64,000 nucleotides of DNA from a virus. The stretch lies in IMG/VR virus record IMGVR_UViG_3300020039_000026. One strand, written 5' to 3'. Each line of letters begins with the position of its first letter. Positions within the stretch are counted from its first letter, which is position 1. Shown here piece after piece: positions 4,949 to 24,274 of this stretch. Under the pieces are notes generated by a model. The model was not told the origin of the DNA. It saw nothing but the letters and a program-made list of their open reading frames with translations, and made no database searches. A program made the translations under genes and the position numbers.

Positions 4949-5362
4949 TTGATGAAACTTACGATTCTGAGCGAGGAGGAAAATCTCGCAAAGCAGGAGG
5001 CGCTTGAAAAAGCGAAAGCTCAGGAAGCGGAAAAGTCCAAGGCCGAAACCAATTCCGCCGTTACAGTCCATGAAATTGATGCGGATTTTGAAACTGGTTT
5101 AACCGCAATTGATGTCGCCGAGCGCGAGGATGATCTGGAACAGATGACAGCCGAATATATCCTGAACCTGATCGACGCCGAAGATATCGACGCCGAGGAA
5201 CTTGGTCTGGATTCCAATGAGCTTTCGTCTATCATTGATGAATTCGAGCAAATTCTCGCTGTTCGCGGCATCCAGGTATACCGCCCGGCTTTTGTCGAGG
5301 ATGATGACGGCACGATTCATATCGCTTATAGCAGATTCGATCAAGAGCTGAATTATCTGTAG
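4949..5362 (+). CDS. Hypothetical acidic protein
   Basis: 137-aa ORF, strongly acidic with a coiled-coil-like N-terminus. Confidence 0.45.
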   Translation: MMKLTILSEEENLAKQEALEKAKAQEAEKSKAETNSAVTVHEIDADFETGLTAIDVAEREDDLEQMTAEYILNLIDAEDIDAEELGLDSNELSSIIDEFEQILAVRGIQVYRPAFVEDDDGTIHIAYSRFDQELNYL

Positions 5363-5375
5363 TGGAGGGTTTTAT

Positions 5376-6149
5376 ATGAAAATCGATCCATGGCCGGCTT
5401 TTGATCGTCTGGTAATGGGTGAAACCGCAAAGCTCAAGCCGTCCGAAATCAAAGCCCTCGAAGCGCAACTTGCTGAGGACAAAATCTTGTGTATGCCAGG
5501 TTTCGCTCCCGTTGCAAATCAACTTGCCATAGGTAATATTGATAAATTCCATGTTGGCGATAAATTATCGACCTCAACTGAAACAGGTCTTGATCTTGAC
5601 TGGATTATCATCGGGAAAAATCAGGACGGCGATAATACGCTGACGGTTCAAACCGAAAAGGCTTTCGGAAAAGTTCGATACTGTAAGCCGACCATCACAC
5701 ATCGTTATGGGTGGAATCACCCTTTGCATAACGATATGACTGGTTATCTGCAAACCGTTTTTGCGAAAACATTTTTTAAGCAAGATCTCGAATGCCTGAC
5801 GAATGTTCAGAAAAAGACGAGAACGTGCGATGAAGATGGGGGCGAAATCATATCTACAACAGATATGTTCTTTCTCCTCTCTGCAAGCGAAGCCGGTTTT
5901 GAAGTCGATGATGAATACGTTTACGACGAAGGTTCCGCATACCAGTTCTACGCTGATAATGATGATTTTAAGCGTATGAAGGTTGATTTTAACAACGATC
6001 GCCGTCTCTGGTGGTTGCGGAGTCCGTACCCGTCGTACGCGTACCACGTCCGTCTCGTCGGTACAGACGGCAGCTTGATCAGCCTTAGTGCGGACCTCGC
6101 GAGCAGCGCGGTGGCCCCAGCTTGTGTAATCAAAGCGAAGCGCATCTGA
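5376..6149 (+). CDS. Hypothetical protein with C-terminal RLWWLRSPYPSYAYHVRLV segment. Paralog of 10573-11334.
   Basis: 257-aa ORF. The two paralogs share a G..G...W.IIGKN..DG core and a C-terminal W(W/T)RS(P/G)...Y.Y(H/V) block. Confidence 0.5.
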   Translation: MKIDPWPAFDRLVMGETAKLKPSEIKALEAQLAEDKILCMPGFAPVANQLAIGNIDKFHVGDKLSTSTETGLDLDWIIIGKNQDGDNTLTVQTEKAFGKVRYCKPTITHRYGWNHPLHNDMTGYLQTVFAKTFFKQDLECLTNVQKKTRTCDEDGGEIISTTDMFFLLSASEAGFEVDDEYVYDEGSAYQFYADNDDFKRMKVDFNNDRRLWWLRSPYPSYAYHVRLVGTDGSLISLSADLASSAVAPACVIKAKRI

Positions 6150-6775: not shown

Positions 6776-7393
6776 ATGATTAACGTCACCATCGGCAACA
6801 ACCTGAAGCGTTCCAACATCATCGTGTCTGAAGCCACCACCATCCGCAAGGCTCTGGAAGACAATGGCATCGACTACACCCGTGGCACCACCTCCCTGGA
6901 CGGCGCTACCCTGGCTCCCGGCCAGATGGACAAGACCTTCGCCGAACTGGGCGTGACCGAAAAGTGCTACCTGCTGAACGTGGTCAAGGCCGATAACGCC
7001 GCCGTGATCAAGATCGTCGGCAACGCTGCCGTGGTTGAATCCGGCCACAGCCTGGAGGATCTGAAGAAGGTCGAAAAGTACCGTCCCGACAGCCTGCGCC
7101 TGTATGAAGGCGATGGCAACAGCAAGCATGTGGTTTTCGCCGTGGGTACCACCAAGGGCAACGGCACCATCAACAGCGTCGGCGCTGAATTCGGTGAAAC
7201 CACCACCGAAGACGGCAAGGCTACTATCTCCATGCTGATGCCCGAGGGCACCAAGGAACCCAAGAAGTGGGTCGAGGAACACATCGGCGTGGCTATCCTG
7301 AAGCTGAACAAGATCGAAGCCCAGTATGCTCCCGCCCTGGCCGACGTGGCTGAGGAGCAGGCCGCTGTGCAGGCCGCCATCACCGTGATGTAA
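6776..7393 (+). CDS. Hypothetical protein with highly-expressed-like codon usage, possibly structural or abundant
   Basis: 205-aa ORF with strongly biased codons (CTG/GGC/ACC/AAG, near-uniform G/C third positions), unlike most neighbours. GGAGATATG RBS. Preceded by a 620-bp noncoding region. Confidence 0.6.
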   Translation: MINVTIGNNLKRSNIIVSEATTIRKALEDNGIDYTRGTTSLDGATLAPGQMDKTFAELGVTEKCYLLNVVKADNAAVIKIVGNAAVVESGHSLEDLKKVEKYRPDSLRLYEGDGNSKHVVFAVGTTKGNGTINSVGAEFGETTTEDGKATISMLMPEGTKEPKKWVEEHIGVAILKLNKIEAQYAPALADVAEEQAAVQAAITVM

Positions 7394-7491
7394 TCCAGGC
7401 ATCCGGCCCGGTTTTGAAGCGCCCTGGGGTTTCGGCCCTGGGGCGCTTCCTCTCTCAAGCCCGCTGGTATACTCCTGAATAGAGGTGTCAT

Positions 7492-8958
7492 ATGTTCGGT
7501 AAAAATCTTGGCGCTGTTGCGCCATTCATCTCCGAAGTTGCAGACAATCTGTTTGCAAACATTAACGGGGAAAGCTTCAACGACGACTGGTCGTTTTTGG
7601 CAGCGCTTCGTGCCATTCTGTTTAGGCGTATGCCAGAGGGTAATACCATCAATCTGTCGATCTACCGTAAGGACTACGGCAAAGATACGATTCATCGTTA
7701 CGAAGAAAACCCGGCTCCGCTCCTGAACGATCTGTTCGGCGATTCTCGTGACGCCATTCGCGTTATTAATTATCGGGCAGATGATGAGACGATCGCCGCG
7801 CTTTTTAAGCTCCTTGACGACGAGGAAAAGGGTTACGCGAAGTATTCCGGTTCTGAAGAACAAAAGGATATTGATTATTTCGTCAAAAATTACGTCAATG
7901 TCAGGTTCTATACGAACCGCGAGAAGCGCTCCGCAGTAATCCTTGTTCAGAACATGGATCTCCGGAAGTATCATTTCATCCAATGCTTCATCCCCAGGGC
8001 TCTGCCGTGGTATTTTGACGGGGAAGAAAATACCCTGGACGAACAGGAAGCTAAGCTGATTCGTTCTTTCCGTGAGAAGTATGCTCCGGAATACGAGGCC
8101 GCTATCGCTGCGCTCGGCGAACGCTTTGATTTCCGGAATGCCGCTATCAAAATGGTTCTGGGCAACTTTGAGAGGTATGCCAAGGAAGCGGAGGTCGGAA
8201 CGACCAGAAATACAATCAATGATATTCGCCGCCAAATCGCTGACAACGAGCAGCGATATAAGAATCTTCTTCAGACGCTGTATGATGCCAATATCCGGCT
8301 GAACGGACTGTTGAAGATGGCCAGTGATTGCGGCGATGAGTCCGAGCTTATTGATTATTTCAACCATAACAAGGCCATTACGCCTATTTCGACGCAAGGC
8401 ACCGCCCTCACGTTCATCGTCAAGACCTTCATTGAATTGTGGGACGAAAACATGTATGAAAAATACGCCGAGAATGGAGTGTTTTACAGAAACATCGGCG
8501 GAATTACCAACCCGGCTTTCGTCGATGTTGAAAAACGCAAGCGTTTCGCCGAGGAGCTTTTCTCTGACGACCCGCAATTCCGCGTGAAGGTCTGCGGAAT
8601 CTATACAATTGACATGCGCGGCGATGTTAATAGCGTGCGCAATTATACCTACCCGGCCGACTGCGCGGATTATCTCCCGAATCCGCATCTTCAGATTTTT
8701 GCCTGCATCGGCACCAACAGGCCGCACATCAAAGAGCTTCTCCGAAATGGGGACCCGATCACCGCCATCGAGCAGTGTATTGCTTCTTCCAAGGGGCTAA
8801 ACCTGTCCGAGGTCGAACAAACGATTCAGCCTTTTATGAAGTGGATTTTCAACTCCACCAAGAATATCATCCGCTTAAATGACGGGAGCGATGTAACTCC
8901 GGCTGAGGCTCTTGAGTGGCTGGACGAGCAGAAGAAAAAGAAGGAGGAAGATAAGTAA
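7492..8958 (+). CDS. Hypothetical 488-aa protein, translationally coupled to the downstream JAB gene
   Basis: Long ORF. Its stop overlaps the next ATG (TAATG). A C-terminal YLPNPHLQIFACIG segment is weakly reminiscent of an E2 HPN...C loop (unproven). Confidence 0.55.
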   Translation: MFGKNLGAVAPFISEVADNLFANINGESFNDDWSFLAALRAILFRRMPEGNTINLSIYRKDYGKDTIHRYEENPAPLLNDLFGDSRDAIRVINYRADDETIAALFKLLDDEEKGYAKYSGSEEQKDIDYFVKNYVNVRFYTNREKRSAVILVQNMDLRKYHFIQCFIPRALPWYFDGEENTLDEQEAKLIRSFREKYAPEYEAAIAALGERFDFRNAAIKMVLGNFERYAKEAEVGTTRNTINDIRRQIADNEQRYKNLLQTLYDANIRLNGLLKMASDCGDESELIDYFNHNKAITPISTQGTALTFIVKTFIELWDENMYEKYAENGVFYRNIGGITNPAFVDVEKRKRFAEELFSDDPQFRVKVCGIYTIDMRGDVNSVRNYTYPADCADYLPNPHLQIFACIGTNRPHIKELLRNGDPITAIEQCIASSKGLNLSEVEQTIQPFMKWIFNSTKNIIRLNDGSDVTPAEALEWLDEQKKKKEEDK

Positions 8959-9872
8959 TGCGACGGCCGATCGTATTGACGGATGAAATCATCGAAAAAA
9001 TGTCCCAGGAATTCATGGCGGCTTTGAAGGCTGCGAAACTGACTGACGGCGGCGTAAAGTACGAAAAAAAGTTCGTATACCCGGAAGAAGCCGGGAAGGA
9101 CAAGGCGATTGTCCTGTATGAGCCGAAAGCCTGGATCAAGCAGAAGCTCCTCCTGTATGAGTTCAGCACAGAAGTTGCCTGGCACGCCGTAGTAGAGCGC
9201 CGCGACGAAATCACTTTCGTTATCAAGGACATTTTGGTCTATCCCCAGGAAGTTACGGGAGGCACGGTCAACACCGACCAGGAGCTTTATCAGAAATGGA
9301 TGATGGAGCTTCCTGACGATGTGTACAACAACCTTCGCGGGCAGATGCATTCCCATGCAATTTTCGCCACCACCCCCTCCAGTGTTGACCTCACCCACCA
9401 GGAACGAATCCTGGACATGATGGGCGGCGACGACTACTATATCTTCTTCATTTGGAACAAGAAAATGGAGAAGACCGTCAAGATCTACGACATGGAAAAC
9501 AATATTCTCTACGAGAACGACGATGTTCTGGTAGAGGTAATCGACGAAGGCAGCGAGATGAACGAGCTTATCAGCTTCATCGGCGATTCCAACAACCATG
9601 TCAAAGCGAAGTCGTACACACAAGCCGGTTATTATTCCGGTTCCGCATACGGCGGCTCTGGTTACGATACCACCGGTAAGAAAGCGAAAGAGCCGAAGGC
9701 TGGCAAAAAGAGCAAGGAAACCGGGAAGGTTGCTGCCCAGCAGACCGCCCTTGCCCCATATAACGCAGGGAATCCGAATGTCGGCTATCAGGGGCAGACA
9801 CCCGGTAGTATTCTCGACCGTCATGATTCCTGGTATCGCAACCTTGTCGGCGACGGCGACGACCTGGATTAA
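8958..9872 (+). CDS. JAB/MPN (JAMM) metalloprotease-domain protein with Gly/Tyr/Ser/Lys-rich low-complexity C-terminal tail
   Basis: Exact JAMM motif H-x-H-x7-S-x2-D (HSHAIFATTPSSVD) with upstream Glu (EVAWHAVVE). 304 aa. Confidence 0.6.
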   Translation: MRRPIVLTDEIIEKMSQEFMAALKAAKLTDGGVKYEKKFVYPEEAGKDKAIVLYEPKAWIKQKLLLYEFSTEVAWHAVVERRDEITFVIKDILVYPQEVTGGTVNTDQELYQKWMMELPDDVYNNLRGQMHSHAIFATTPSSVDLTHQERILDMMGGDDYYIFFIWNKKMEKTVKIYDMENNILYENDDVLVEVIDEGSEMNELISFIGDSNNHVKAKSYTQAGYYSGSAYGGSGYDTTGKKAKEPKAGKKSKETGKVAAQQTALAPYNAGNPNVGYQGQTPGSILDRHDSWYRNLVGDGDDLD

Positions 9873-9884
9873 GGAGGTATCCTT

Positions 9885-10556
9885 ATGGACCTGAGTAAAT
9901 CCTACGATTTTTTCAAACCTGAAATGTTACAGGGACGGGTTCATATCATCGGCTGTGGGGCGATCGGCTCCACAGTCGCTGAAAACCTGTGTCGCTTTGG
10001 TGTAACCAAAATGACCCTGTACGATTTCGACATTGTCGAACCTAAAAACATCGCAAACCAGATGTTTACGTCCGAGGATATTGGCAAGAAAAAGGTTCGT
10101 GCGGTTGCCGAGTATCTTCGGAAAATCAACCCTGAAATCGTTGATGACCTTCGCGTTTGTGAAAATGGTTATACCGATCAGCGGCTTTCTGGATATATCT
10201 TCCTGTGCGTCGATAACATTGATCTTCGCCGGAAGATCGCGGAGTCCTGCCGTGGAAATCCCTTTGTGAAGGGCATGTTCGATTTCCGGATGAGGCTCAC
10301 AGACGCGCAGCACTATGCGGCGGACTGGAGTGACGAGGGAATGATTCAGGCTTTCTTGAACAGCATGGCCTTTTCCCATGAGGAAGCCAAAGAGGAAACG
10401 CCCGTTTCTGCCTGCAATATCACCCTTAGTGTCTGTACCACGGTTCGTTCGGTTGTAGCGGCCGGTGTATCCAACTTCGTAAATTTCGTCAAGGGTCAGG
10501 GAATCAAAAAAATGATCCTTTGCGATTCCTTCTCGTTTGGCCTGGATGCTTTTTAA
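9885..10556 (+). CDS. Minimal E1-like ThiF/MoeB-family adenylyltransferase domain protein
   Basis: Rossmann motif HIIGCGAIGS, then LYDFDIVEPKNIANQ (E1/MoeB DxDxVExSNLNRQ-like), GKKKVRAVAEYLRKINPEI (MoeB INPxI motif) and LCVDNIDLRRKI (DCxDN-like). 223 aa with no CxxC zinc motif. AAGGAGG RBS. Confidence 0.65.
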   Translation: MDLSKSYDFFKPEMLQGRVHIIGCGAIGSTVAENLCRFGVTKMTLYDFDIVEPKNIANQMFTSEDIGKKKVRAVAEYLRKINPEIVDDLRVCENGYTDQRLSGYIFLCVDNIDLRRKIAESCRGNPFVKGMFDFRMRLTDAQHYAADWSDEGMIQAFLNSMAFSHEEAKEETPVSACNITLSVCTTVRSVVAAGVSNFVNFVKGQGIKKMILCDSFSFGLDAF

Positions 10557-10572
10557 TCGATGAGGTGAGTAT

Positions 10573-11334
10573 ATGAAACTGAAAGAACTGCCGGTTGGAA
10601 ATCAAGTAGTTTTCGGCAGCTATGCCATGGATGGAAGTCATACATCCAAGGAATTGATTTGGACGAAGGTCACAGAAGACGGAAAATGCGTGTTAAAGCC
10701 AGATCAATTGAGCGGAAAGTTCGATTATCCGGAGCGTGGCGACGTTAATCGTGACCGCAAGGCGCATGGTTATAATTACTTCCCGATGGCAAACGTATTT
10801 CAGTTCATAAACTCGCCTGAAACTCAGTGGTTTCATCCGATGCATGAAGGCGACCGCGCTGGATACGATGCCAATCGCTGGGGTTTCCTGGCCTCATTCA
10901 CATCGGATGAAATCCGGCAGCTTCTTCCGCACGAAATCGAAATTGGCGTACCGGAAGGCTCCAGGAAGCAGCATGGCCGAAAAAACAAGCTGAAGTGTCT
11001 GGTTTCGCTCCCGTCGGCATCTCAATACCAGGAGACGGTCGATGATTATCTCCAGTGTGAGGGGGAGGTCATTCCTCTCCTGCAAAGAGACGGTGTTTTC
11101 CGTGGCTGGACGAGGAGCGGTGTTCTCGATTCGTGCCATGCATATGTGGCCAAATACGGATGGCTGGATGCATATCATTGTGATAATTCATTCACTATTT
11201 GCCCCATGGTCGTAATCAATCCTGAAAGCGAATTGACCCTTGATCCGGAAACCGGGCGTTATTACGTGAACATTCAATCGCAAGAAGAAGCGAGAATCAT
11301 GACTGATGATTTTCTCAATATGATTTTGAAATAA
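10573..11334 (+). CDS. Hypothetical protein, paralog of 5376-6149
   Basis: 253-aa ORF with GAGGTGAG RBS. Shared motifs with the paralog (FRGWTRSG vs RLWWLRSP; AYHCDN vs YAYHVR). Confidence 0.5.
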   Translation: MKLKELPVGNQVVFGSYAMDGSHTSKELIWTKVTEDGKCVLKPDQLSGKFDYPERGDVNRDRKAHGYNYFPMANVFQFINSPETQWFHPMHEGDRAGYDANRWGFLASFTSDEIRQLLPHEIEIGVPEGSRKQHGRKNKLKCLVSLPSASQYQETVDDYLQCEGEVIPLLQRDGVFRGWTRSGVLDSCHAYVAKYGWLDAYHCDNSFTICPMVVINPESELTLDPETGRYYVNIQSQEEARIMTDDFLNMILK

Positions 11335-11336
11335 AA

Positions 11337-11696
11337 TACTGCAATGCATAACCCGTTCTTTGAACGTGTGCTTTGTGCGTTACGCCAAAGTATCAAGATG
11401 CTGGAAAGAAGGATGACCGACCGCACTGGCAGCCGAAAGCACACCCTGAAGGCGCCATCCCCGGCAGGGTCTAATACCCAACCGACAGCAAACGTCGATC
11501 CCGGGATCCTACCATGCAACGATTTCACATGTACAACCTGGCAGCCCAATACAGCCATACGGAACATGCGAAAATCGTAAAATAAAATGCAATCGTCCGA
11601 AGACCGGCGCGTCGCCTCCAGGACAACCCAGATGACGACATCTCTACGATCGGACTCCTCTTCAGCAAGATCACCACAGGTACTCAGATTGCAGTA
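11337..11696 (+). ncRNA. Candidate retron msr/msd noncoding RNA. A 360-nt region bounded by inverted repeats a1 TACTGCAAT (11337-11345) and a2 ATTGCAGTA (11688-11696), ending 17 nt before the RT start.
   Basis: Perfect 9-bp inverted repeat (12 bp with one bulge) flanks the whole intergenic region, which is the retron a1/a2 layout. The interior is A/C-rich with a GATCCCGGGATC palindrome. No credible ORF. Confidence 0.4.
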
Positions 11697-11713
11697 ATTG
11701 GAGATGAATCAAA

Positions 11714-12856
11714 ATGCCTTATATCACGGTAAGACAGCCTCCTCCCACACAACAGATTACATTCGATGATCTGTTTCTTTCGCCAAACGCCATTCCAAAT
11801 CTCCCGATGGCGGTAAAGCGGGATATGTCAGGTACGATCACGAGGTTCGTGAAGTGCCCTAAAAAGGAATTAGTCGAGAGAATCAACGTTCAGTCGCTTA
11901 TTGATGCTCTGGAAATTTTCAATACGAAATACGGTCAGCTTCATGCGGCAAAACGGCAGGATCTTTACCATACTTTCTATATCCCGAAGCACTCCGGCGG
12001 TTTAAGAAAAATCGACGAACCCAACGAAGAACTGATGTCTGCTCTCAGGGAGCTAAAGTCCATCTTTGAAAATAAAATGGGAGCTTTATATCATACGTCG
12101 GCGTTCGCCTATGTCCCTGGTCGTTCCACCGTGGACGCAATCAAGCGCCACCAAGCAAATGAGAGCAGGTGGTTCTTAAAAACGGATTTCTCCAATTTCT
12201 TCGGCTCTACAACCGAAGAATTTTTATTTGAGTCCACTTCTCTTATCTTTCCGTTCAGCGAAATGGTCAGGTACACGAATGGCCGGGTTCAGCTAAGGCT
12301 CGCCCTGTCCCTCTGCATGTTGAACGGCGGCTTGCCCCAGGGTACGCCCATTTCACCAATGCTCACCAATCTGATGATGATCCCGATTGATCACAGGATC
12401 TTCAACGAGCTTTCCAAGGAGGGTTTCGTATATACCAGGTACGCTGATGACATTCAGCTTTCCCATAAATTCGAGTTCGATTATAAAGGGAAGGTCGATT
12501 ACATCAATACCGTCGTCAAGAGCTTCAGAGGGCCGTTTGAAATAAAGCCTGAGAAAACGCGGTATGGTTCTTCCTCCGGACGAAACTGGAACTTGGGTTT
12601 GATGCTGAATAAGGACAACGATATAACTGTCGGATATCAGCGCAAGAAGCAATTCAAGGCCATGACGAATAACTTTATCGTGGATTATCTGAATCACACG
12701 CCATGGCCGAAGGAAGATGTCCAGCATTTGAACGGTCTCAAAAGCTACTACCTTATGGTCGAGCCTGAATACTTCAAGTATATGCTCAGCCATCTTGAAC
12801 AAAAGTACAGCATTGATTTTGAAACTATGATGAAAGCGGCCTTAAACGCGGAGTGA
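11714..12856 (+). CDS. Reverse transcriptase, retron-type by motifs
   Basis: RT motifs: FYIPKHSGGLRKI (motif 2), AYVPGRSTVDAIKRH, KTDFSNFFGS (motif A), LPQGTPISPMLTNLMM (motif B-prime), VYTRYADDIQLS (motif C, YADD). 380 aa, retron-sized. GGAGATG RBS. Confidence 0.75.
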   Translation: MPYITVRQPPPTQQITFDDLFLSPNAIPNLPMAVKRDMSGTITRFVKCPKKELVERINVQSLIDALEIFNTKYGQLHAAKRQDLYHTFYIPKHSGGLRKIDEPNEELMSALRELKSIFENKMGALYHTSAFAYVPGRSTVDAIKRHQANESRWFLKTDFSNFFGSTTEEFLFESTSLIFPFSEMVRYTNGRVQLRLALSLCMLNGGLPQGTPISPMLTNLMMIPIDHRIFNELSKEGFVYTRYADDIQLSHKFEFDYKGKVDYINTVVKSFRGPFEIKPEKTRYGSSSGRNWNLGLMLNKDNDITVGYQRKKQFKAMTNNFIVDYLNHTPWPKEDVQHLNGLKSYYLMVEPEYFKYMLSHLEQKYSIDFETMMKAALNAE

Positions 12857-12865
12857 GGTGATTTC

Positions 12866-12973
12866 ATGCGAAGCGGATATTATGTAGGTTACGGTTACAA
12901 GGGTCTCGTTCGCGGCGTTTGGATGCTGTTCGCAACGGAACAGGAGTATATCGAGTACCTCCAAAACGACTAA
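12866..12973 (+). CDS. Small Tyr/Gly-rich ORF (35 aa) immediately after the RT
   Basis: ATG preceded by GAGGTGA RBS. Short, so uncertain. Confidence 0.25.
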   Translation: MRSGYYVGYGYKGLVRGVWMLFATEQEYIEYLQND

Positions 12974-12991
12974 ATCGAAGGAGGCCGCATC

Positions 12992-13747
12992 ATGAAGCCG
13001 CATAAATACAAGCCGATCTGCAAGGCTGGAGCGATGCTGCTCACAGAAGCCATCCTTTGGCAAGCTGGCCTTGATTGGCGAGAAAGTGACAGAATCCTCC
13101 AGCACAAAAATCGAAAGGACTTGCTGAGGCTGAAAAAGAACGTGGAGAGATTTTTCCGTTCTCAGTGGTTCGAGGATTTAACAGGGCTGGATGGGCGGGC
13201 GGTATTCCGCGAGCTCAGCGGCGGAAAGGATTTTATGAGCAAACCGTTTTGCACAGGCATGTACGGCGGAAAGTTTATGCCCATGCATAAAGGGCATCTG
13301 TACTGTCTAAAACAGGCATCGCGGCTGTGCGATAAAGTATATCTTATTTGCACGACAGGCGGTACGGACGAAGAAAGAATTGCGGGTGAAATTGAGCGCG
13401 GAGACACGGAGATCGGGGAATATCTTACCCCGGAATTTCGGCTGGAGCAAATCAAGCGTGCGGCCGCTATGCTTGATAACGTCGTCCCGGTCATGGTAGA
13501 TTTATCTTCCTGCCGCGATGAAAATGGCAATGAGGATTGGGATATGGAAACGCCCATTATCCTTGAAGCCTGCGGCGAACCCTTCGATGCCGTTTTTGGC
13601 AGCGAAGAATCCTATGCTCCGTACTTCAACCGGGCATATCCCGGTGCAGAGTACGTTTTGATAGATTGCGACCGGGCAGAGGTTCCTATCAGCGCGACAA
13701 AAGTTCGCGCCATGTCCAAGGACGAAGCGAAAGGATGGATGGTGTAA
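12992..13747 (+). CDS. NadR-type nicotinamide-nucleotide adenylyltransferase (NMNAT domain only) with about 85-aa N-terminal extension
   Basis: GGKFMPMHKGHLYCLKQASRLCDKVYLI matches the E. coli NadR NMNAT segment [34 protein letters not shown] matches ISGAQIR. No ribosylnicotinamide kinase domain. GAAGGAGG RBS. Confidence 0.65.
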   Translation: MKPHKYKPICKAGAMLLTEAILWQAGLDWRESDRILQHKNRKDLLRLKKNVERFFRSQWFEDLTGLDGRAVFRELSGGKDFMSKPFCTGMYGGKFMPMHKGHLYCLKQASRLCDKVYLICTTGGTDEERIAGEIERGDTEIGEYLTPEFRLEQIKRAAAMLDNVVPVMVDLSSCRDENGNEDWDMETPIILEACGEPFDAVFGSEESYAPYFNRAYPGAEYVLIDCDRAEVPISATKVRAMSKDEAKGWMV

Positions 13748-14467
13748 GTGTTTCATCTGGATTTCAAAAGAAGTTTCAAAAGCCTGAAATGGTACGAATG
13801 GGTCATGGCGATCATTATGATTGCCATTGCAGCTTGGGCGATGGTCTCCGCGTTCATCCATCCCAGTCCCAACGGGAACCCCGCCTGGTTGACCGTAATC
13901 AACTTCGTTAGCGCAGTGTGCGGGGTGATCTGCATCTTCTTCTGCGCTAAGGCAAACATCGGCAACTACATATTCGGCATCATCAACACGGTCGTATATG
14001 CCATTTACCTGATGTACTGGAAGATATACGGCACTTTCTTCCTGGAGGTTCTGTACTACCTGCCCACCAATATTGCCGGATGGTATCTCTGGACATGCTA
14101 TCGCGATTCCGATGATAGGAATATTACCATGTCCAAAAAATTGACGCCGAAACAAAACGCAATCGTTGCATTGTTCGTTGCTGCGACAACGGTGTTATAC
14201 CATGCAATTCTCGTTGCTGTGGGCGGCAATGTTGCCTGGTTGGATGCGGCCACCGTTGCCATCGGCCTTGTAGCCACATTCCTGCAAATGAAGCGATACA
14301 GAGAACAGTATGTATGGTGGCTTATCACAGACGTGGTTGCTGTCGCCATGTATATTGTTCATTTCGATCCCGTGTATCTCACGAAGAAATCAATCTATCT
14401 GATTATGGCGATTATCGGCTTAATTAACTGGGTTAAACTCAGCCAGAAAAATGTCGCCAACGAATAA
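13748..14467 (+). CDS. pnuC: PnuC-family nicotinamide riboside transporter
   Basis: 239 aa, about 7 predicted TM helices, PnuC-like aromatic-rich pattern (WYLW, NxxxW). Classic pnuC-nadR adjacency. Confidence 0.6.
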   Translation: MFHLDFKRSFKSLKWYEWVMAIIMIAIAAWAMVSAFIHPSPNGNPAWLTVINFVSAVCGVICIFFCAKANIGNYIFGIINTVVYAIYLMYWKIYGTFFLEVLYYLPTNIAGWYLWTCYRDSDDRNITMSKKLTPKQNAIVALFVAATTVLYHAILVAVGGNVAWLDAATVAIGLVATFLQMKRYREQYVWWLITDVVAVAMYIVHFDPVYLTKKSIYLIMAIIGLINWVKLSQKNVANE

Positions 14468-14761
14468 AGGATGAGCAGAAATGAGTCGGCAAGAACAGCA
14501 ATTTCAGACAGGGGATAAAGTTCTTGTTACGGAACGTATCCGTCCATGCAATGAATGCTATGAGTTTCTTGTCGGAGAACTTATACAGTAAGCGGTGTCG
14601 TTTTGCATCACGATCGCTACTACTATAAATTCCGTGATAATCCCACAGGAAATCGATCATTTGCTATTCTGGAACACTGTCTTGAACTTGTCGATGAAAC
14701 GCCCGTACCCAGTGAGATTCTTGCCGACTCTTTCTGTGATTTGATCTTCGGAGGTGATTAA

Positions 14762-15082: not shown

Positions 15083-15159
15083 CTGGGTGTAGCGAAGCTT
15101 GGTATCGCGCTTGATTTGGGATCAAGAGATCGCGGGTTCAAGTCCCACCACCCAGACCA
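15083..15159 (+). tRNA. tRNA-Pro (anticodon TGG), CCA encoded
   Basis: Acceptor CTGGGTG/CACCCAG, D-stem GCGA/TCGC, anticodon stem CTTGA/TCAAG with loop TTTGGGA, T-arm GCGGG-TTCAAGT-CCCAC (one C-A mismatch), ACCA end. Confidence 0.7.
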
Positions 15160-15556
15160 TTGGAAAGCGCATCTTTCCAATCTGTATGAAAGACTACCGT
15201 GAGCGGAGGACGCAGCGGATAGGCACCATGATGTCACGTCTTTTGTATAGAAAACGAATCAAAATACGATATATGATAGGCGTAGGCTACTGCGGCTTTA
15301 TTAAGAAGAAACGGATGCTACCCTGATGCGCGGGGAGCGGCAGTGAAAAGTTCCGTGTCGCATGATGATTCCTGGTTACATATGTAGATTGGGTGGTACG
15401 CGAGATCATCCAGGGCGAAGAAGCTGAAGTTCGTTCCGGATAGAAGAAACTGAGCATACGAGGAGCGGTCCGGAGAGGGTATGGAGAACCTCTGATATAA
15501 GTTCTGCCATGCGTTGTAGTTTGCTTGGTTTCGCCAGGATTCATCATGCAATGTGA

Positions 15557-15629
15557 GGGGCCGTAGCTCAATCGGCAGAGCGCCTGCTTTGCAAGCAGGA
15601 GGTAAGGGGATCGTAACCCCTCGGCTCCA
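15557..15629 (+). tRNA. tRNA-Ala (anticodon TGC) with non-canonical T-loop ATCGTAA
   Basis: Acceptor GGGGCCG/CGGCTCC (G3-U70 pair typical of tRNA-Ala), D-stem GCTC/GAGC, anticodon loop TTTGCAA, T-arm AGGGG-ATCGTAA-CCCCT. No CCA encoded. Confidence 0.6.
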
Positions 15630-15659
15630 TTCCTATTTGACTGTTCCGGAGGTTTTCCC

Positions 15660-15833
15660 ATGGCTGAATCGCAAGAGTATACGATCGTGTTTACGCCGGA
15701 TTGCTTTCACCCGGATATCAAAATCACCATTGCAGTACCGGCCGACCATGACGCGGAAGAATACATCGACCAGTATCTGGAATCCATTCTAAATAATAAT
15801 ATCCTGTATAACTGCGAATGGTCGTTTGCTTAA
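15660..15833 (+). CDS. Small hypothetical protein (57 aa)
   Basis: ATG ORF below the ORF-track size cutoff. Plausible acidic small protein between tRNAs. Confidence 0.3.
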   Translation: MAESQEYTIVFTPDCFHPDIKITIAVPADHDAEEYIDQYLESILNNNILYNCEWSFA

Positions 15834-15919
15834 TTGACCGCTTCAACATTTTGGGATATCAAACGTAATAAACACGTTACCTGCTGGATGCCGCTTCCCG
15901 AACATCCGAAGGAGAAAAC

Positions 15920-16105
15920 ATGAAGTGCAAAGACTGTAAATACTGGCAGATGGAAGATGAACCACCCGGCATCTCAGAGTTTATGGAATGTACACGCATT
16001 GACGAAAACGACCCTGACTGGTGGAAGAAGTGGCATTTTCGCGGGCCGGAAGATTCATGCGAATACGGGGAAAAGAAAGGAAGTTGGCAATCGCCCTTTG
16101 GATAG
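15920..16105 (+). CDS. Small Cys-rich protein
   Basis: 61 aa with GGAGAAAACATG RBS. CKDCKYW...C...C pattern suggests a zinc-binding fold. Confidence 0.35.
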   Translation: MKCKDCKYWQMEDEPPGISEFMECTRIDENDPDWWKKWHFRGPEDSCEYGEKKGSWQSPFG

Positions 16106-16162
16106 AGCCCTGTGTGAAATCCTCCGCATAGTGCAGAATGCTTTTCAGTTACGCAGCTCTAT

Positions 16163-16247
16163 GTCCCTGTGGTGGAATTGGCAGACGCGGGGGAATTAAA
16201 ATCCCTCGTCTTCGGACGTGTGAGTTCAAATCTCACCAGGGACACCA
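16163..16247 (+). tRNA. tRNA-Leu (anticodon TAA), class II with long variable arm, CCA encoded
   Basis: Acceptor GTCCCTG/CAGGGAC, D-arm GTGGTGGAATTGGCAGACGC (Leu-like), anticodon loop ATTAAAA, variable hairpin CGTC-TTCG-GACG, T-arm GTGAG-TTCAAAT-CTCAC, ACCA. Confidence 0.7.
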
Positions 16248-16249
16248 AA

Positions 16250-16570
16250 GGAATAACTGAAAAACGGGTTGGGAGGAAACAAGCTTTATTCTCGCTGCCA
16301 CCCAAAGGCAGAGAAGCAGATGGCGTACTGCACCCGTCACATAGCGTAGGTTATTCCATCCTGATGTATCCCGGCGAACAGGCCAAAAGCCGGGTGGTGG
16401 AGTGGACCCAGAGGGACGACGCGTGGGGGTGGTATCCTACGCAAATAAACCGCCAGCACAACGACTCCCTGTAGCTGGTAAACCAAAAGGCAGGCGTTTT
16501 CGTGGAGGGATACCGTAGAAGCGGAACGCAGAAGGCCAATGGTATGGGATTTACATTCATGCGGTTTGCC
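16250..16570 (+). ncRNA. Structured noncoding region with a conserved hairpin motif (16362-16398) and nested inverted repeats
   Basis: No ORF. GGAATAAC (16251) pairs with GTTATTCC (16349). GCGTAGG (16342) pairs with CCTACGC (16439). Motif TGATGTATCCCGGCGAACAGGCCAAAAGCCGGGTGGT recurs at 16652 with compensatory stem changes. Confidence 0.35.
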
Positions 16571-16575
16571 CATAA

Positions 16576-16648
16576 GGCTCCTTAGCTCAATCTGCAGAGT
16601 ATCTGACGATTAATCAGTATGATGTTGGTTCAAATCCAGCAGGAGCCA
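16576..16648 (+). tRNA. tRNA-like gene with non-canonical anticodon loop CGATTAA (G at position 33, nominal anticodon ATT). Identity unassigned.
   Basis: Perfect 7-bp acceptor GGCTCCT/AGGAGCC, D-arm GCTC-AATCTGCA-GAGT, T-arm GTTGG-TTCAAAT-CCAGC, 73 nt. Anticodon stem TCTGA/TCAGT has a terminal T-T mismatch and the loop lacks U33. Confidence 0.4.
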
Positions 16649-16649
16649 G

Positions 16650-17010
16650 ATTGATGTATCCCGATGAACAATAAAAATCGGGTGGTATGCTGTGGCTACA
16701 GGCGGAGTAGCGCTCCGCAGGGCTCCCGTTCCTAACCCTGGCCATGAATGCCTGTGGGGCTCATGGCCAAAGAACGGCTTCTGTGCGGGTAGCCTGGCGG
16801 CGATGGGTTCGATTCCCATGACTCGCGCAAGTGGCCGGGTAGCGCCCGGCTGATGTGAGCGTCCGCGCAACACCTCACAAAGAATGACAATGGCCGCTGA
16901 AAACGTACTTCGGCACATGTCCGGTCGCATGACTTCCCTCGACCGTCAGGGTGCATGACACGATCCGTCAGCGAAGCACGATAATCTAAGCGGCAAGCGC
17001 CCATTTCAGT
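16650..17010 (+). ncRNA. GC-rich structured noncoding region starting with the second copy of the covarying hairpin motif (16651-16686) and containing a tRNA T-arm-like element ATGGG-TTCGATT-CCCAT (16808-16824)
   Basis: Only antisense-looking ORFs. Multiple local hairpins (GGCGGAGTAGCGCTCCGC, GGCCATGAATGCCTGTGGGGCTCATGGCC). The T-arm-like element is followed by GACTCGC, which could pair with GCGGGTA upstream as a minihelix. Confidence 0.3.
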
Positions 17011-17094
17011 AATTCATTTGAAAGGTGGTATACATATGGAAATCCTGTTAACCAAGAAATCCCCTATGTGTATGCACGCCAGTAAGGAGTCACT

Positions 17095-17499
17095 ATGAGC
17101 AATTGGACACATGTAGCGGCCATCGTCCGCCTGGACTGTATTCGTCCACTGTATGACAGGGATCCTAATATGGATGACCTGTTCGGAAAAGAATGTTTGT
17201 GGGATGCGCCGGGAGAAGTTCGGAGCGACGCGGAGAAGCATCCTGAAAACTACCTGCCAACCGGAAGCGAGGGAAGCCTGCATAAAAGCGTGTGGATTAA
17301 TCCGAACCGTCAGGAGATTCCCGCCTTTGTCATTTCCATTTTCGGTGATCTGCGCGATCATGATTCTTCCCAGGAAATCATTGAGTGGTTTAAGAAGAAA
17401 TGCGAAAAGGCGATGGAGTTCCATTGCTTTATTCGCAATGCTGTGATTACTGCGGAGAATGAATGCAATGGTTCCGCGCATTGGGAGTACGAAGAATAG
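17095..17499 (+). CDS. Hypothetical protein
   Basis: 134-aa ORF with AAGGAG RBS. Confidence 0.5.
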   Translation: MSNWTHVAAIVRLDCIRPLYDRDPNMDDLFGKECLWDAPGEVRSDAEKHPENYLPTGSEGSLHKSVWINPNRQEIPAFVISIFGDLRDHDSSQEIIEWFKKKCEKAMEFHCFIRNAVITAENECNGSAHWEYEE

Positions 17500-17574
17500 G
17501 CCGAATGATCCCGTACATCAAACGTTCCCGAATTACGGTGGTAAGCTGACCGGCGAAAGCCTACGCGCCGAAAA

Positions 17575-17596
17575 TCGGATTTATGCCCGCCCGGTT
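17575..17596 (+). terminator. Hairpin terminator candidate just upstream of tRNA-Gly
   Basis: GCCCGCC-CGGTT-GGCGGGC followed by TTTG. Confidence 0.4.
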
Positions 17597-17668
17597 GGCG
17601 GGCTTTGCAGCCGTAGTGTAATGGCAATCACACCGTCCTTCCAAGTCGGGTTTGCGGGTTCGAGTCCC
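17597..17668 (+). tRNA. tRNA-Gly (anticodon TCC)
   Basis: Acceptor GCAGCCG/CGGCTGC, anticodon stem CCGTC/GTCGG (one T-T mismatch), loop CTTCCAA, T-arm GCGGG-TTCGAGT-CCCGT. No CCA. Confidence 0.6.
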
Positions 17669-17673
17669 GTCGG

Positions 17674-17775
17674 CTGCTTTTATGGGAGAGTAACCAAGAG
17701 GTCAAAGGTGCGAGACCGTAAATCTCGCGTTCTGATATGCCGCGCTAAAACAGAACTTCGCTGGTTCAAATCCAG
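17674..17775 (+). tRNA. tRNA-Tyr-like (anticodon GTA) with unusually long 28-nt variable arm and C at position 33. About 102 nt, possibly aberrant.
   Basis: Acceptor GGGAGAG/CTCTCCC with one extra nt before it. Tyr-like D-arm AACCAAGAGGTCAAAGGT. Anticodon stem CGAGA/TCTCG with loop CCGTAAA. Variable arm GTTCTG-ATATGCCGCGCTAAAA-CAGAAC. T-arm GCTGG-TTCAAAT-CCAGT. Confidence 0.4.
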
Positions 17776-17783
17776 TCCTCTCC

Positions 17784-17872
17784 CATTTTCTTTGGAAGGT
17801 TGGCTGAGCCTGGCTGAAAGCACCGGTCTTGAAAACCGGCAGCCCCAAAAGGGGCTCGTGGGTTCAAATCCC
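17784..17872 (+). tRNA. tRNA-Ser (anticodon TGA), class II
   Basis: Acceptor GGAAGGT/ACCTTCC with G73 discriminator, anticodon stem CCGGT/ACCGG, loop CTTGAAA, variable hairpin AGCCCC-AAAA-GGGGCT, T-arm GTGGG-TTCAAAT-CCCAC. Confidence 0.7.
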
Positions 17873-17905
17873 ACACCTTCCGCTTTTTGATTGGAGGAAT
17901 AAATC

Positions 17906-18325
17906 ATGACGGAATATCAACGGCAGGCAGAAGATTTTTTAGCCCGCAGCGGGACGACCATGAAAATCACACGCGACGGCGATGTGCGCGGCTTCCCGTT
18001 TGACAAAAGCGATCATCATATGCATGAGAAGTATCTCATCTCCATGCGTCGCGGCTGTCGCTCCTATGAGTTTCCTTTTTATGACTGTGCGGCGAACTTC
18101 CACACAAACAAGCGGCCAACCGCATATGATGTTCTGTCTTGTCTGGAAAAGTACGAAGTACCATCGGATGATTGGGATTTTGCACATGAGTTCGGCTACG
18201 ACATCCACGATAAAGAAAGCTTCAATCGCGTGTCCAAAATCCGTAAGGCGTGTGAAGAGCAATATGCCGCCCTGTATCTTATGTTCGGGGATCAATGGAT
18301 GGAAGAACTTAGGCAAATCAACTAA
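17906..18325 (+). CDS. Hypothetical protein
   Basis: 139-aa ORF with GGAGGAATAAATCATG RBS. Confidence 0.5.
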   Translation: MTEYQRQAEDFLARSGTTMKITRDGDVRGFPFDKSDHHMHEKYLISMRRGCRSYEFPFYDCAANFHTNKRPTAYDVLSCLEKYEVPSDDWDFAHEFGYDIHDKESFNRVSKIRKACEEQYAALYLMFGDQWMEELRQIN

Positions 18326-18382
18326 CCTATTGTCTGTTCATGAAAAGGATTAAGAATAGATAATCCAAAGCAGGTACTCCTT

Positions 18383-18787
18383 TTGGTTGTAAATGGGGGA
18401 ATATCTTTGTATATCCGAAAAAGTATCCATTCCATTGAGTCCGTCTACGAAGCCGTTCATGATACGATGTTCAATCCGAAAACCACATACATCCTATTCG
18501 ATGGCGATGAAATCAAAAGCACAAGTCAGCGCTATCAGGTATTTTTTACAAAAGGGATTCGCTGCGTTTCGTGCGGCATCGAAGGGAAATATTTTGCCAA
18601 GGAAAAAGGGCATGGTTCATCACAAGATCGCTATCACCTTAATTTATACGCCATTGACGAAAATGGCAAGGAAGTCCTGATGACCAAAGACCATATCATC
18701 CCAAGATCAAAGGGTGGTTTGAATCGTCTGGAAAACTATCAAACGATGTGTCAAATCTGCAATAGCAAAAAGGGAAGCGAACATTGA
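18383..18787 (+). CDS. HNH endonuclease, free-standing
   Basis: C-terminal HNH motif HIIPRSKGGLNRLENYQTMCQICNSKKGSEH with CxxC zinc ligands. Confidence 0.6.
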   Translation: MVVNGGISLYIRKSIHSIESVYEAVHDTMFNPKTTYILFDGDEIKSTSQRYQVFFTKGIRCVSCGIEGKYFAKEKGHGSSQDRYHLNLYAIDENGKEVLMTKDHIIPRSKGGLNRLENYQTMCQICNSKKGSEH

Positions 18788-18794
18788 TAGGTCT

Positions 18795-19595
18795 ATGGAT
18801 AAAGCATGGGTACAAGAAAAGGAAGCACAAAGGGCTGAAGAAATACGGCTTACCAAAGAAACTATCCGCCGGAAAATCTTAGACGCAGGGCTTCAGGAAT
18901 ATGTCGATGTTCTCTTAGCTGGCGTAGATAAGAGCTTTGATCTTCACGTATCATTTTTGTGCGGTTCAATAGAAATACTTGACGCAATTAAGAAGAAAAC
19001 TACTGGCAACAAAGAGCTATTTGCTTCTATTATCGAAAAGTATTGCTTGTTTGAGCATAGCATCCGCGAAGAGTTGGAAAAACTTTTTCAGCTTAAATAC
19101 AGCTTCCAGCAATTTTCCGACTCAGATCTGGTCGAGTTTGATGGGGATATTATCATTACAGATCCTTGCTATGTCATGCGAGACGACGCCGAAGATGATT
19201 GGGAAAAGTGTTCTTGCGGCGAGAACATGGACGAACTCGGCATCCATCACTTCATGAGCCGCAGTACCATTATTGGCGACTGGAGCTGTACTGTCTACAA
19301 TACAGATAATCATAGGAAGATAGGTGAGTTCTGCGCCGATGCGGGAATGGTTTCTGTTCTCCTGCTAAATGAAGTCCTTCAATACAATCCGTCCTTCGAC
19401 TATCATATAAATAGGAAGTGGACGACGGCGCTGATAAAGAATTTCAAAGGAACCGTTCAGTTTGTTGTTCACGAGGTACACTTTGAGTACAATGGCGAAG
19501 ATCATGTGGGCTACGAGGTGGAAGTAGTTGGGCATGGTGTCAATAAGAAAACCGGCAAGCCTTTCAACTTTTCGTCAAGACAAACCGGGTTATAA
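18795..19595 (+). CDS. Hypothetical protein
   Basis: 266-aa ORF. Confidence 0.5.
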   Translation: MDKAWVQEKEAQRAEEIRLTKETIRRKILDAGLQEYVDVLLAGVDKSFDLHVSFLCGSIEILDAIKKKTTGNKELFASIIEKYCLFEHSIREELEKLFQLKYSFQQFSDSDLVEFDGDIIITDPCYVMRDDAEDDWEKCSCGENMDELGIHHFMSRSTIIGDWSCTVYNTDNHRKIGEFCADAGMVSVLLLNEVLQYNPSFDYHINRKWTTALIKNFKGTVQFVVHEVHFEYNGEDHVGYEVEVVGHGVNKKTGKPFNFSSRQTGL

Positions 19596-19631
19596 AATTA
19601 CGCTTTTATTAATCGATAAGGAGGTAAACCT

Positions 19632-20042: not shown

Positions 20043-20105
20043 CTCAATTGGCAGAGTGCCGCTTTTGTACTGCGGAAGCTGCGGGTTCAATTCCTGTATC
20101 CGGCT
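20033..20105 (+). tRNA. tRNA-Thr (anticodon TGT)
   Basis: Acceptor GCCGGAT/ATCCGGC, D-stem ACTC/GAGT, anticodon stem CCGCT/TGCGG (terminal T-T), loop TTTGTAC, T-arm GCGGG-TTCAATT-CCTGT. No CCA. Confidence 0.55.
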
Positions 20106-20107
20106 CT

Positions 20108-20181: not shown

Positions 20182-20205
20182 TTTGATTTGTAATGAGGTG
20201 ATATT

Positions 20206-23274: not shown

Positions 23275-24274
23275 AATAAGAATTTTTGATTTAGAAGATA
23301 TAAAAAACAATGGAAAACACCACGATTTCTCATACATTGTCACTCCCGCTATAATGCAAAGATCATAAAATACAAGTTTCAATTGCAATGAAAACTGCTC
23401 TTAGGTACATAGTGTATTTTGAGCGCTTCATGTGATACGCTGAAGTAACACATAGTCCGGAAAGGGAACGCGGGCCGCACGACGAAAAGCGCACGAGCTA
23501 ACCAGGCTAAGCATGTAATCCGAAAGCTCAGACACGGAACACAATCAATGAAAACAAGCCAAAAGAAAGCAAAGGCCTGAACAATATACAAAGAACCGAA
23601 ACATCAGAACCACAAACTACACCTGAACTCGCCCCTCCAGCGCCCACTCCGCCTTTCACACACACATATATTAGATTGCAATGAAACATTATTTGATATA
23701 CACGCTATGAAAATTTTCGATTGTTCCGCGTTTATTCATACATATAAGCAATCGAATCTTCCAGGTTTAATCGGGAGAGTGAACTTAATGTACTCATTCA
23801 CGAGTAAAAGCTTGGCCTTCATTTAAATAAAACATTATGCTCCCCTAATTCTCGGGCTGTGAGTAACACACCCACGAGAATTAGGGTCACATATTCTTTT
23901 ATTTAAATGTGGCAGCTATCAGATAGCGTTTATACACGTTTGCACCATGCAATTTTCGCCATGATTTCTGGCGAGCCTTTTTGGTTTAACCGGAAGGAGA
24001 AACGAAAGTTTCTATCTCGATCGCACTCTCGGCCCAATGTTAGTACGGCCGAGAGATACGCAGATGGTGCGGCATCACACACAATATCAGGAAAGGGGAT
24101 TTAAGCCATGCTCATGACGCCAGGAAGGAAGCTTTGGTGCTATGACCGTTACGGACTCACGAAATATGCAGTACGATTCGTCAAGGATCTTGGCAACGGA
24201 TATGCGTCTGTCCAGCGCAAGGGGTGTTCTAATGTAATCATGGTTCAGAAAAGCTCTCTGCGCAAGGTGCATTT

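Follow-up and report, generated by a model that had tools for sequence, protein, structure and literature searches.

A 64-kb stretch of viral DNA (IMG/VR record IMGVR_UViG_3300020039_000026; the whole stretch is hereafter the window, and all coordinates are positions in it) contains a retron-type reverse transcriptase (RT) gene and two non-coding RNA (ncRNA) units, one immediately upstream of the RT gene and the other farther downstream. Judged from sequence, these units are organised like a retron msr-msd RNA, with a closing stem that has a G at its inner end, then msr stem-loops, and a template that continues up to the other arm. We consider it probable, with moderate confidence, that this is an effector-less (orphan) retron-type system, vertically inherited, which has several template RNAs and makes long, G/T-rich multicopy single-stranded DNAs (msDNAs) that benefit the phage. 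A retron-like element made up of the RT and the region upstream of it had been described in an earlier note on this DNA; the second unit and the multi-unit arrangement are not in that note and are added by the present analysis.

The RT gene and the parts of the unit next to it (unit 1) are given here, all on the + strand.

11337..11696, + strand: ncRNA unit 1, msr-msd-like, 360 nt, immediately 5′ of the RT gene (covariance model R1, 53.6 bits; paired ends)
11337..11345, + strand: 5′ arm of the terminal stem, a2-type, TACTGCAAT (covaries with the 3′ arm in 70 loci)
11346, + strand: conserved G 3′ of the 5′ arm, candidate branching (priming) guanosine (G in 51/51 distinct sequences, alignment A4)
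11351..11369, + strand: msr hairpin 1, conserved in shape and variable in sequence among relatives (two-hairpin fold in 50/51)
11370..11391, + strand: msr hairpin 2, GCUUUGUGCGUUACGCCAAAGU, then UAUCAAGAUG (covariation)
11392..11684, + strand: A/C-rich, fast-evolving body, presumed msd template, with a palindrome inside it (composition, hypervariability)
11688..11696, + strand: 3′ arm of the terminal stem, a1-type, ATTGCAGTA, with CAG before the arm (exact reverse complement of TACTGCAAT)
11714..12856, + strand: retron-type RT, 380 aa (hidden Markov models (HMMs), fold)

The inverted repeat, the 380-aa RT with its four motifs, the A/C-rich region and the palindrome (GATCCCGGGATC, 11497-11508) had all been pointed out in the earlier note, and all are present where it had placed them. 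Unit 1 begins just after the stop codon (11332-11334) of a preceding 253-aa open reading frame (ORF), 17 nt separate its 3′ arm from the RT start codon (11714), and its stem can be lengthened to 12 nt with one mismatch (11334-11345 against 11688-11699). By itself the 9-bp repeat is insignificant: about one such perfect repeat is expected by chance in the surrounding 800 nt, and a second one is indeed found there. The case for the unit therefore rests on comparison with relatives, whose sequences put the repeat far beyond chance. In these relatives, gene callers predict nothing in the region of unit 1. We also rejected a 78-aa ORF at 11344-11580 as a gene; it is unconserved, has in-frame stops in relatives, meets alignment gaps of 1, 2 and 5 nt, and is not called as a gene in relatives.

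Almost every related locus has a gap of 300-440 nt, free of called genes, 5′ of its RT gene, and the ends of this gap covary, with pairs such as CTGCAAT/ATTGCAG, CTGTAAT/ATTACAG, CTGTAAC/GTTACAG, CTGTGAT/ATCACAG and CATAGCGAC/GTCGCTATG. Our initial search for this stem favoured pairing, and it was redone on 70 non-identical loci anchored by conserved core sequence only. In this set, the innermost stem pair is free of mismatches, being T-A in 34 loci and C-G in the other 36, and the middle variable pair is T-A in 53, C-G in 14 and C-A in three; at the four outer positions, 74% of cells are paired, compared with 24-45% when the partner is slid. In a further test, units were picked by their 5′ module alone, and a perfect complement of at least 8 bp to the arm ending exactly before the G was sought 150-480 nt downstream; such a complement exists in 76% of the RT-adjacent units and 66% of the other units, and in 0% of cases in two control searches.

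Inside the stem, the consensus from the G onward is G-N-A-U-W, and before the 3′ arm it is A-U-G-U-A-G (the selection of units gave AG before the 3′ arm a small bonus, which slightly inflates the G frequency there). Two abutting hairpins start four or five bases after the G at the 5′ side. This two-hairpin fold was obtained for 50 of 51 distinct relatives, with a mean energy of -13.3 kcal/mol compared with -6.4 kcal/mol in shuffles. Hairpin 2, which in unit 1 is built from 6 bp, a one-base bulge, 3 bp and a short loop, has 95.8% of its cells paired across relatives, and 106 cells are changed on both sides; none of 500 shuffles equalled this, and slid controls reached 33-53%. The architecture of unit 1 recurs in more than 100 related loci. 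The msr-msd-like RNA bounded by a1/a2 repeats that the earlier note had proposed is thus borne out by a stem that covaries in 70 loci, a G that follows the 5′ arm, and two hairpins, and we infer that G11346 is the priming site.

Two observations concern what surrounds the RT-adjacent unit in relatives. In several of them (L001, L006 and L007), terminator-like GC-rich hairpins followed by a T run end 10-15 nt before the 5′ arm; at such a distance, they leave little space for a promoter dedicated to the unit. In a distant relative (L012, approximately 5280-6000), an ORF of about 80 codons stands between the unit and the RT gene, so a unit is not always adjacent to the RT start.

We searched the related loci with covariance model R1, built from the 5′ module, and with nhmmer, a less sensitive search that uses sequence only. 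The covariance model gave 262 matches, all on the strand of the RT gene, and revealed further units in most loci, with a maximum of six matches in one locus (L033). With nhmmer, 185 units with terminal stems were found in 105 loci: one unit in 42 loci, two in 47, three in 15 and four in one. In span (median 302 nt) and composition, the extra units match those adjacent to the RT gene, and 78 of 103 lie directly after it. Every unit has a terminal stem of its own, of 8-12 bp, and an A/C-rich body of 150-290 nt. The window itself has one extra unit:

23381..23682, + strand: ncRNA unit 2, ~302 nt (model R1, 36.9 bits, E = 1.5e-5 with filters off; terminal stem; fold)

Unit 2 consists of a 5′ arm, ATTGCAAT (23382-23389), a G (23390), two hairpins, a strongly A/C-rich body, UUAG, and a 3′ arm, ATTGCAAT (23675-23682). 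It is 10.5 kb downstream of the RT gene, within a gap of about 1 kb that has no genes. Because extra units mostly sit directly after the RT gene in relatives, the genes that separate the RT gene from unit 2 (nicotinamide adenine dinucleotide (NAD) genes, tRNA genes and others) look like inserted cargo. The part of the gap that follows unit 2 (23683-24275) contains strong hairpins, CCCCTAATTCTCG...CGAGAATTAGGG at approximately 23843-23887 and CTCTCGGCC...GGCCGAGAG at approximately 24027-24056. A possible third unit at 26177-26248 (14 bits, E approximately 0.5) has a TACTGTAT-G start and an element like hairpin 2 and lacks a matching 3′ arm; we left it out of the count, and either a decayed unit or chance could explain the match. 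In one close clade, the ORFs that follow the RT gene start at the position of the second ncRNA unit, and these ORFs are therefore probably not genes. The 5′-module model finds no unit in relatives with RTs of approximately 42% identity (L180-L185), though the order of ThiF gene, gap and RT gene is kept in them; the RNA of these relatives is beyond the reach of the model, and the number of units in the family is therefore underestimated.

The distribution of units bears on the idea that the upstream RNA serves merely as a leader that regulates the RT operon in cis, such as a Rho-loading site or an attenuator, and that the RT uses other templates. A leader of this kind would suit a body that is C-rich, G-poor and weakly structured, and a unit that has no promoter just upstream and is hence probably co-transcribed with the RT gene. 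However, complete units also follow the RT gene, and unit 2 is 10.5 kb away in a gap of its own; moreover, a terminal stem, a G and two hairpins are exactly what a retron RT requires. We therefore regard a mere leader as very unlikely.

The RT has the active site YADD, a motif 4 that reads QGTPISP (of the QGxxxSP type), and NLG where retrons have VTG. In Pfam it matches RVT_1 alone. Its best match in PADLOC is the retron model RT_II-A (1.6e-48), and all 25 of the matches listed are retron RT models. The best NCBIfam match is retron_St85_RT (180 bits, 4e-53, positions 4-286 of 289), and Drt2, Drt3a and AbiA are far below it (Drt2 at 43.7 bits against a cut-off of 390). The closest solved structures by sequence are the RTs of retrons Ec83, Ec78 and Ec86, in which the VTG region aligns with NLG. 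An AlphaFold2 model of the RT, made with 33 relatives in the alignment, has a mean predicted local distance difference test score of 86, and its top Foldseek matches are retron RTs (E from 1e-17 to 1e-13); a group II intron RT (1e-12), DRT9 (1e-10), the RT of a diversity-generating retroelement (DGR; 9e-10, rank 26) and DRT2 (4e-9) are lower. Profile, sequence and predicted-fold matches all indicate that the RT belongs to the retron clade and, by curated cut-off, lies outside every named family of it; the PADLOC, NCBIfam and solved-structure matches thus support the earlier assignment of the protein as a retron-type RT.

Among 270 members of the RT family, the active-site motif is YADD in approximately 235, FADD in 25 and YSDD in three or four. 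Several relatives have in-frame insertions of 228-318 nt in the RT gene (L106, 5283-5513; L158, 8286-8513; L164, 8772-9089; L165, 8805-9065). All are multiples of three in length and they occur at two sites, after residue ~97 and after residue ~256-267; they could be extra domains or mobile insertions.

The body of the unit behaves very differently from the 5′ module. In unit 1 its composition is A.31, C.33, G.20 and T.16, and over the region of the unit the GC skew is -0.17 to -0.23 and the AT skew +0.27 to +0.40, with the opposite sign in the flanking genes. From hairpin 2 to the last ~40 nt, the sequence is unalignable even between phages with 74%-identical RTs. Within a close clade of 12 phages, identity is 96% in the RT, 97% in msr (the 5′ module) and 93-95% in the flanks, but 72% in the body; along 11 kb, identity falls sharply to 0.64 exactly over the body, compared with 0.93-0.98 in the flanks. 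The divergence of the body is approximately twice that of the four-fold degenerate sites of the adjacent RT gene, and transitions dominate (A-G 210, C-T 188, transversions 194), with no adenine bias. The same decay is seen in 82 RT-adjacent units: body identity is 89% at 98-100% RT gene identity and 74%, over half the length, at 90-95%. Below 80% RT nucleotide identity no body aligns (0 of 272 pairs at 70-80%), whereas the 5′ module aligns in 85% of these pairs. Despite this divergence, length and A/C-richness are kept, and alignment gaps among close relatives are 1, 2 and 5 nt. By these comparisons, the body evolves at or above the neutral rate, and the template region is under selection for its length and composition, not for its sequence.

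Two further readings are a DGR and a DRT2-like system, in which a gene is assembled out of concatenated complementary DNA (cDNA). In support, a phage RT does lie beside a non-coding template here, and some units have a chance stop-free frame. However, there is no second copy of the body in the 64-kb window, and no target of the body longer than 13 nt is found there; motif 4, QGxxxSP, is unlike the DGR type; and the substitutions are not adenine-specific. These three observations agree with the earlier note, which had found no DGR hallmarks. In addition, no open frame in the body is consistent across 15 relatives. The stop-free frames vary in strand and in frame from one relative to another, and for this reason we also rejected a gene-synthesis (neo-like) reading. 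The Drt2 profile score is far under its cut-off, and the folds of DGR and DRT2 RTs rank well below those of retrons. Either of these two readings is extremely unlikely.

The family of related RTs is large. The RT has at least 120 relatives at 53-100% identity (counted as 90%-identity clusters), and when clustered at 50% identity there are at least 150 clusters with E below 1e-68 and 439 with E below 1e-30. IMG/VR holds 177 relatives, and the genome bins of GTDB hold 64 loci, nearly all metagenome-assembled, mostly labelled Clostridia and from gut, rumen and termite samples, on contigs that are typically 50-130 kb long. An identical RT protein is present on a contig of 114,344 bases. Among deposited phage records, the sole close relative is an unannotated human faecal contig, and a nucleotide search of 10500-14500 against known phage records gave no match. 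As part of the explanation that we favour, the element would belong to the conserved genome of a large (~100-kb) phage lineage of gut and rumen Clostridia, which we likewise hold to be probable.

Neighbouring genes were counted over 109 non-redundant loci, as follows.

9885..10556, + strand: ThiF/E1-like adenylyltransferase, 223 aa, constant upstream neighbour, context (Pfam ThiF, 1.5e-25; 107/109 loci)
8958-9872, + strand: p304, context (no Pfam match; 105/109 loci)
7492-8958, + strand: p488, context (no Pfam match; 103/109 loci)
p205: 66/109 loci
p253: 29/109 loci
12992-13747, + strand: NadR-type NMNAT, variable cargo (4/109 loci)
13748-14467, + strand: PnuC, variable cargo (7/109 loci)

The earlier note had singled out the adjacency of the RT gene to the NMNAT and PnuC genes as unusual. 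With so few loci sharing it, this adjacency is incidental, and the NAD genes are not part of the element. The upstream neighbours, in contrast to this variable cargo, are nearly constant. Six of six loci that were found additionally via ThiF carry the RT, and the identity of each RT to that of the window tracks the identity of its neighbours (r = 0.62-0.79); this pattern fits vertical co-inheritance of the RT gene and its neighbours.

A JAB/MPN-like motif (HxHx7Sx2D) was noticed by eye in p304, but a JAB domain was unconfirmed by Pfam even at E = 5. ThiF homologues occur in crAss-like and Xanthomonas (jumbo) phages, and an equivalent block lies in the replication region of crAss001, where it consists of gp79, gp78, gp77 (with a metalloprotease domain) and gp76 (ThiF) and no RT is annotated in the 10 kb around it. 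The block is hence not confined to retrons, and we rejected it as a retron-specific partner; p205-p488-p304-ThiF (6776-10556) looks like an uncharacterised E1/JAB-type module of large phages. Downstream of the RT gene, small ORFs were considered as effectors and rejected: the largest cluster is present in 17 of 127 loci, and there the ORFs start at the next ncRNA unit. A 35-codon ORF that directly follows the RT gene in the window (12866-12973) is kept in only four to six relatives and is an uncertain gene. No PADLOC model matched the neighbours that were tested, except by ThiF.

These data allow a classical defensive retron to be weighed. It would act in lysogens, where the RT and msDNA would restrain a toxic effector until abortive infection is triggered against superinfecting phages, the effector being either unlinked or encoded by a constant neighbour. 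In favour of this, both the RT and the RNA architecture are retron-type; the phage has a tyrosine integrase (59899-61035; PHROG phrog_1, 9e-69), and prophage-borne retrons are known; ThiF, p304 and p488 adjoin the RT in 103-107 of the 109 loci; and PADLOC links ThiF to the E1 domains of defence systems. Nevertheless, all members examined have the element at one and the same position, and its divergence parallels that of its neighbours, whereas defence cargo is usually sporadic. The equivalent neighbour block of crAss001 has no annotated RT, the element is without a conserved downstream partner, and several fast-diverging templates are unexpected for an antitoxin that must fit one effector. We judge a defensive retron to be unlikely, though a real possibility.

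Another explanation, prompted by the number and diversity of the units, is a divergent relative or analogue of the UG27 systems of phages, in which synthesis would start from an internal motif and not from a branched G. Gut phages commonly encode UG27, a class 2 UG/Abi RT (Mestre et al. 2022, PMC9226505). Its arrays of diverse ncRNAs of ~150 nt (135-167) give hairpin cDNAs of 50-100 nt, and two accessory proteins, sORF and bORF, are needed; the units have the motifs AUCN7UANAG and UUYA, the active site is YSDD, and there is an internal start motif (bioRxiv 10.64898/2026.09.22.753630, September 2026). UG27 is the closest parallel to the multi-unit arrangement that we describe. In both cases a phage RT of ~380-450 aa is accompanied by a variable count of units that are conserved in structure and diverse in sequence, without association with defence islands and with function unknown; UG27 RTs, of 380-450 aa, are common in gut phages of Bacteroidota and Bacillota and lie beside arrays of diverse ncRNAs (PMC9226505; bioRxiv 10.64898/2026.09.22.753630), and the RT family here is also accompanied by several diverse units and by neighbours of unknown function (p488 and p205). 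No known domain is seen in p488 (103 of 109 loci) or in p205 (66 of 109 loci). In addition, the conserved sequence that precedes the 3′ arm, U-R-U-A-G, is similar to UANAG in the UG27 motif.

The details of the two systems diverge, however. Compared with UG27 by its description, the RT here is retron-like with YADD or FADD, and YSDD is seen in only three or four of 270 members, whereas UG27 has YSDD according to the preprint. The units here are ~300 nt long and closed by an a1/a2 stem with a G, as opposed to ~150 nt with a main hairpin, an internal loop and a pseudoknot, and the full UG27 motif is found in only 16 of 185 units. The best full-length HMM and fold matches of the RT are retron RTs and not class 2 UG RTs (DRT2, DRT9), with UG27 itself compared by description. 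Weak RT matches in gut-phage records were tried as candidates for UG27 and rejected, being either classical retron RTs or located beside a crAssphage tail-fibre gene, which suggests a DGR. Kinship or analogy with UG27 in this sense is quite unlikely.

The closest bacterial retrons are of type II-A by profile (Ec86/Eco1, St85/Sen2) and of type I-A by solved structure (Ec78/Eco7, Ec83). The element shares with them a retron-clade RT, an upstream ncRNA on the same strand, a closing inverted repeat, a G after the 5′ arm, and msr stem-loops followed by the template. Unlike them, it is a phage element without an effector gene and with several units per RT; these units are ~300 nt long, with a long A/C-rich body that lacks a stable msd hairpin. 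Its RT has NLG for VTG, DAxxH for NAxxH, and an N-terminal extension of 60-75 residues, and the RT gene is a constant gene of a phage lineage rather than island cargo. Orphan retrons (the Retron-Eco5/Ec107 branch) consist of an RT and an ncRNA without an effector, and a function in trans or some other mechanism has been left open for them (Mestre et al. 2020, PMC7736814). Whereas those are bacterial, with a single ncRNA and a hairpin msd, the family here is phage-borne and multi-unit and has a different type of template. In our search of the literature, no natural retron with several ncRNAs was found.

Retrons have been seen before in prophages, and a retron-like RT in lytic phages. In temperate phages, P2/P4-type examples such as Ec67 and Ec73 occupy variable hotspots and are complete defence systems of three parts; like them, the element lies within a phage genome, and unlike them, it has no effector gene and occupies one fixed position in its lineage. 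MarsHill gp206 is a retron-like RT from lytic Staphylococcus jumbo phages; a long non-coding region precedes its gene, and no effector is linked to it (bioRxiv 10.1101/2020.12.14.422802). It is ~29-30% identical to the RT here, is 501 aa long with an N-terminal domain of 200 residues, and its ncRNA is undefined. These temperate P2/P4-type and lytic Staphylococcus jumbo phages are precedents that qualify the earlier note's view of a retron in a phage replication region as unusual.

We propose a mechanism for the orphan retron-type system that follows the established mechanism of retrons. The RT would bind the two hairpins of each unit, prime from the 2′-OH of the conserved G (11346 in unit 1, 23390 in unit 2), and copy the body from beside the 3′ arm (~11687 and ~23674, respectively) towards the hairpins. 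The product would be a long branched msDNA of roughly 200-290 nt, rich in G and T. Because there is no effector gene, the position is fixed, the element co-diverges with its replication-region neighbours, and several templates diverge rapidly, such msDNAs would be expected to serve the phage, perhaps as abundant single-stranded DNA (ssDNA) decoys or sponges for proteins of the host or of rivals that bind or sense ssDNA. A toxin-antitoxin switch for abortive infection is less likely.

A number of points weigh against this proposal. The role as decoy or sponge is its weakest step, although the most plausible role, and is drawn from context and from the exclusion of alternatives. Retrons are defined as three-part systems with an effector, and no downstream gene is conserved across the 127 loci surveyed. 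The RT, at 180 bits, is under the curated cut-off of 235 for retron_St85_RT, the nearest NCBIfam retron model. The Rfam scan of 10500-13500 that the earlier note had suggested produced no family, even at E up to 10, and at gathering thresholds the units are unmatched, the whole window giving only tRNAs and one small RNA. A promoter scan found no promoter-like site immediately upstream of unit 1. The integrase makes a role in the defence of lysogens possible. Finally, there is no stable family-wide msd hairpin: the bodies have a mean z of -1.2, and the fraction of bases paired is 0.54 compared with 0.52 in composition-matched shuffles. Nor is there a general closing helix in the body, according to a duplex test over 179 units (mean z -0.36); a CTGAAG/CTTCAG pairing and a long-range stem from RNAalifold had been considered as a general msd hairpin and were unsupported by this test. 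Unit 1 of the window does beat its shuffles (z -3.5 for the RNA and -4.2 for the predicted cDNA).

A more speculative extension would regard the element as a retron turned around: the phage RT would read a changeable array of templates and flood the cell with ssDNA decoys, and the templates may diversify through recombination of the cDNAs back into the loci they came from. If C and A were deaminated on the single-stranded cDNA before it is copied back, an A/C skew would result. Such copy-back would explain together why hypervariability is confined to the body, why transitions dominate, and why the A/C skew runs counter to the one in the flanking genes. We offer this version tentatively and think it unlikely to be correct in full.

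The remainder of the window is that of a phage with its own helicase, primase, DNA polymerase, NrdD and DNA ligase; given the integrase alongside this full replication machinery, the phage may be temperate. ARAGORN finds eight tRNAs, and Rfam adds a ninth tRNA-like match at 17685-17784. A set for tRNA supply and repair (15083-22006 and 37204-38295) includes a Thg1-like tRNA-His guanylyltransferase (20206-20994), a nucleotidyltransferase (20984-22006) and an RNA ligase. There are two NAD routes, one with NMNAT and PnuC (12992-14467) and the other with NAD synthase, a cytidylyltransferase-like adenylyltransferase and NAPRTase (32985-35586), and they resemble the NAD-reconstitution counter-defence known from other phages. 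A match to the skipping-rope RNA (Rfam RF02924) at 56839-56913 scores 57.6 bits, over the gathering score.

Retrons have been studied as bacterial anti-phage toxin-antitoxin systems that consist of one RT, one ncRNA and one effector. In the family described here, phages instead keep the retron machinery as a constant gene that is inherited vertically; it lacks an effector and has several templates, which diversify rapidly. If the mechanism that we propose is true, these RTs would copy long (200-290 nt), little-structured templates and would accept several ncRNAs, both of which are properties sought for retron genome editing. For the biology of these phages, the findings suggest that they use ssDNA made by a retron for purposes of their own; and, taken together with the arrays of UG27, they suggest that the synthesis of ssDNA from RNA arrays is a recurrent phage strategy.

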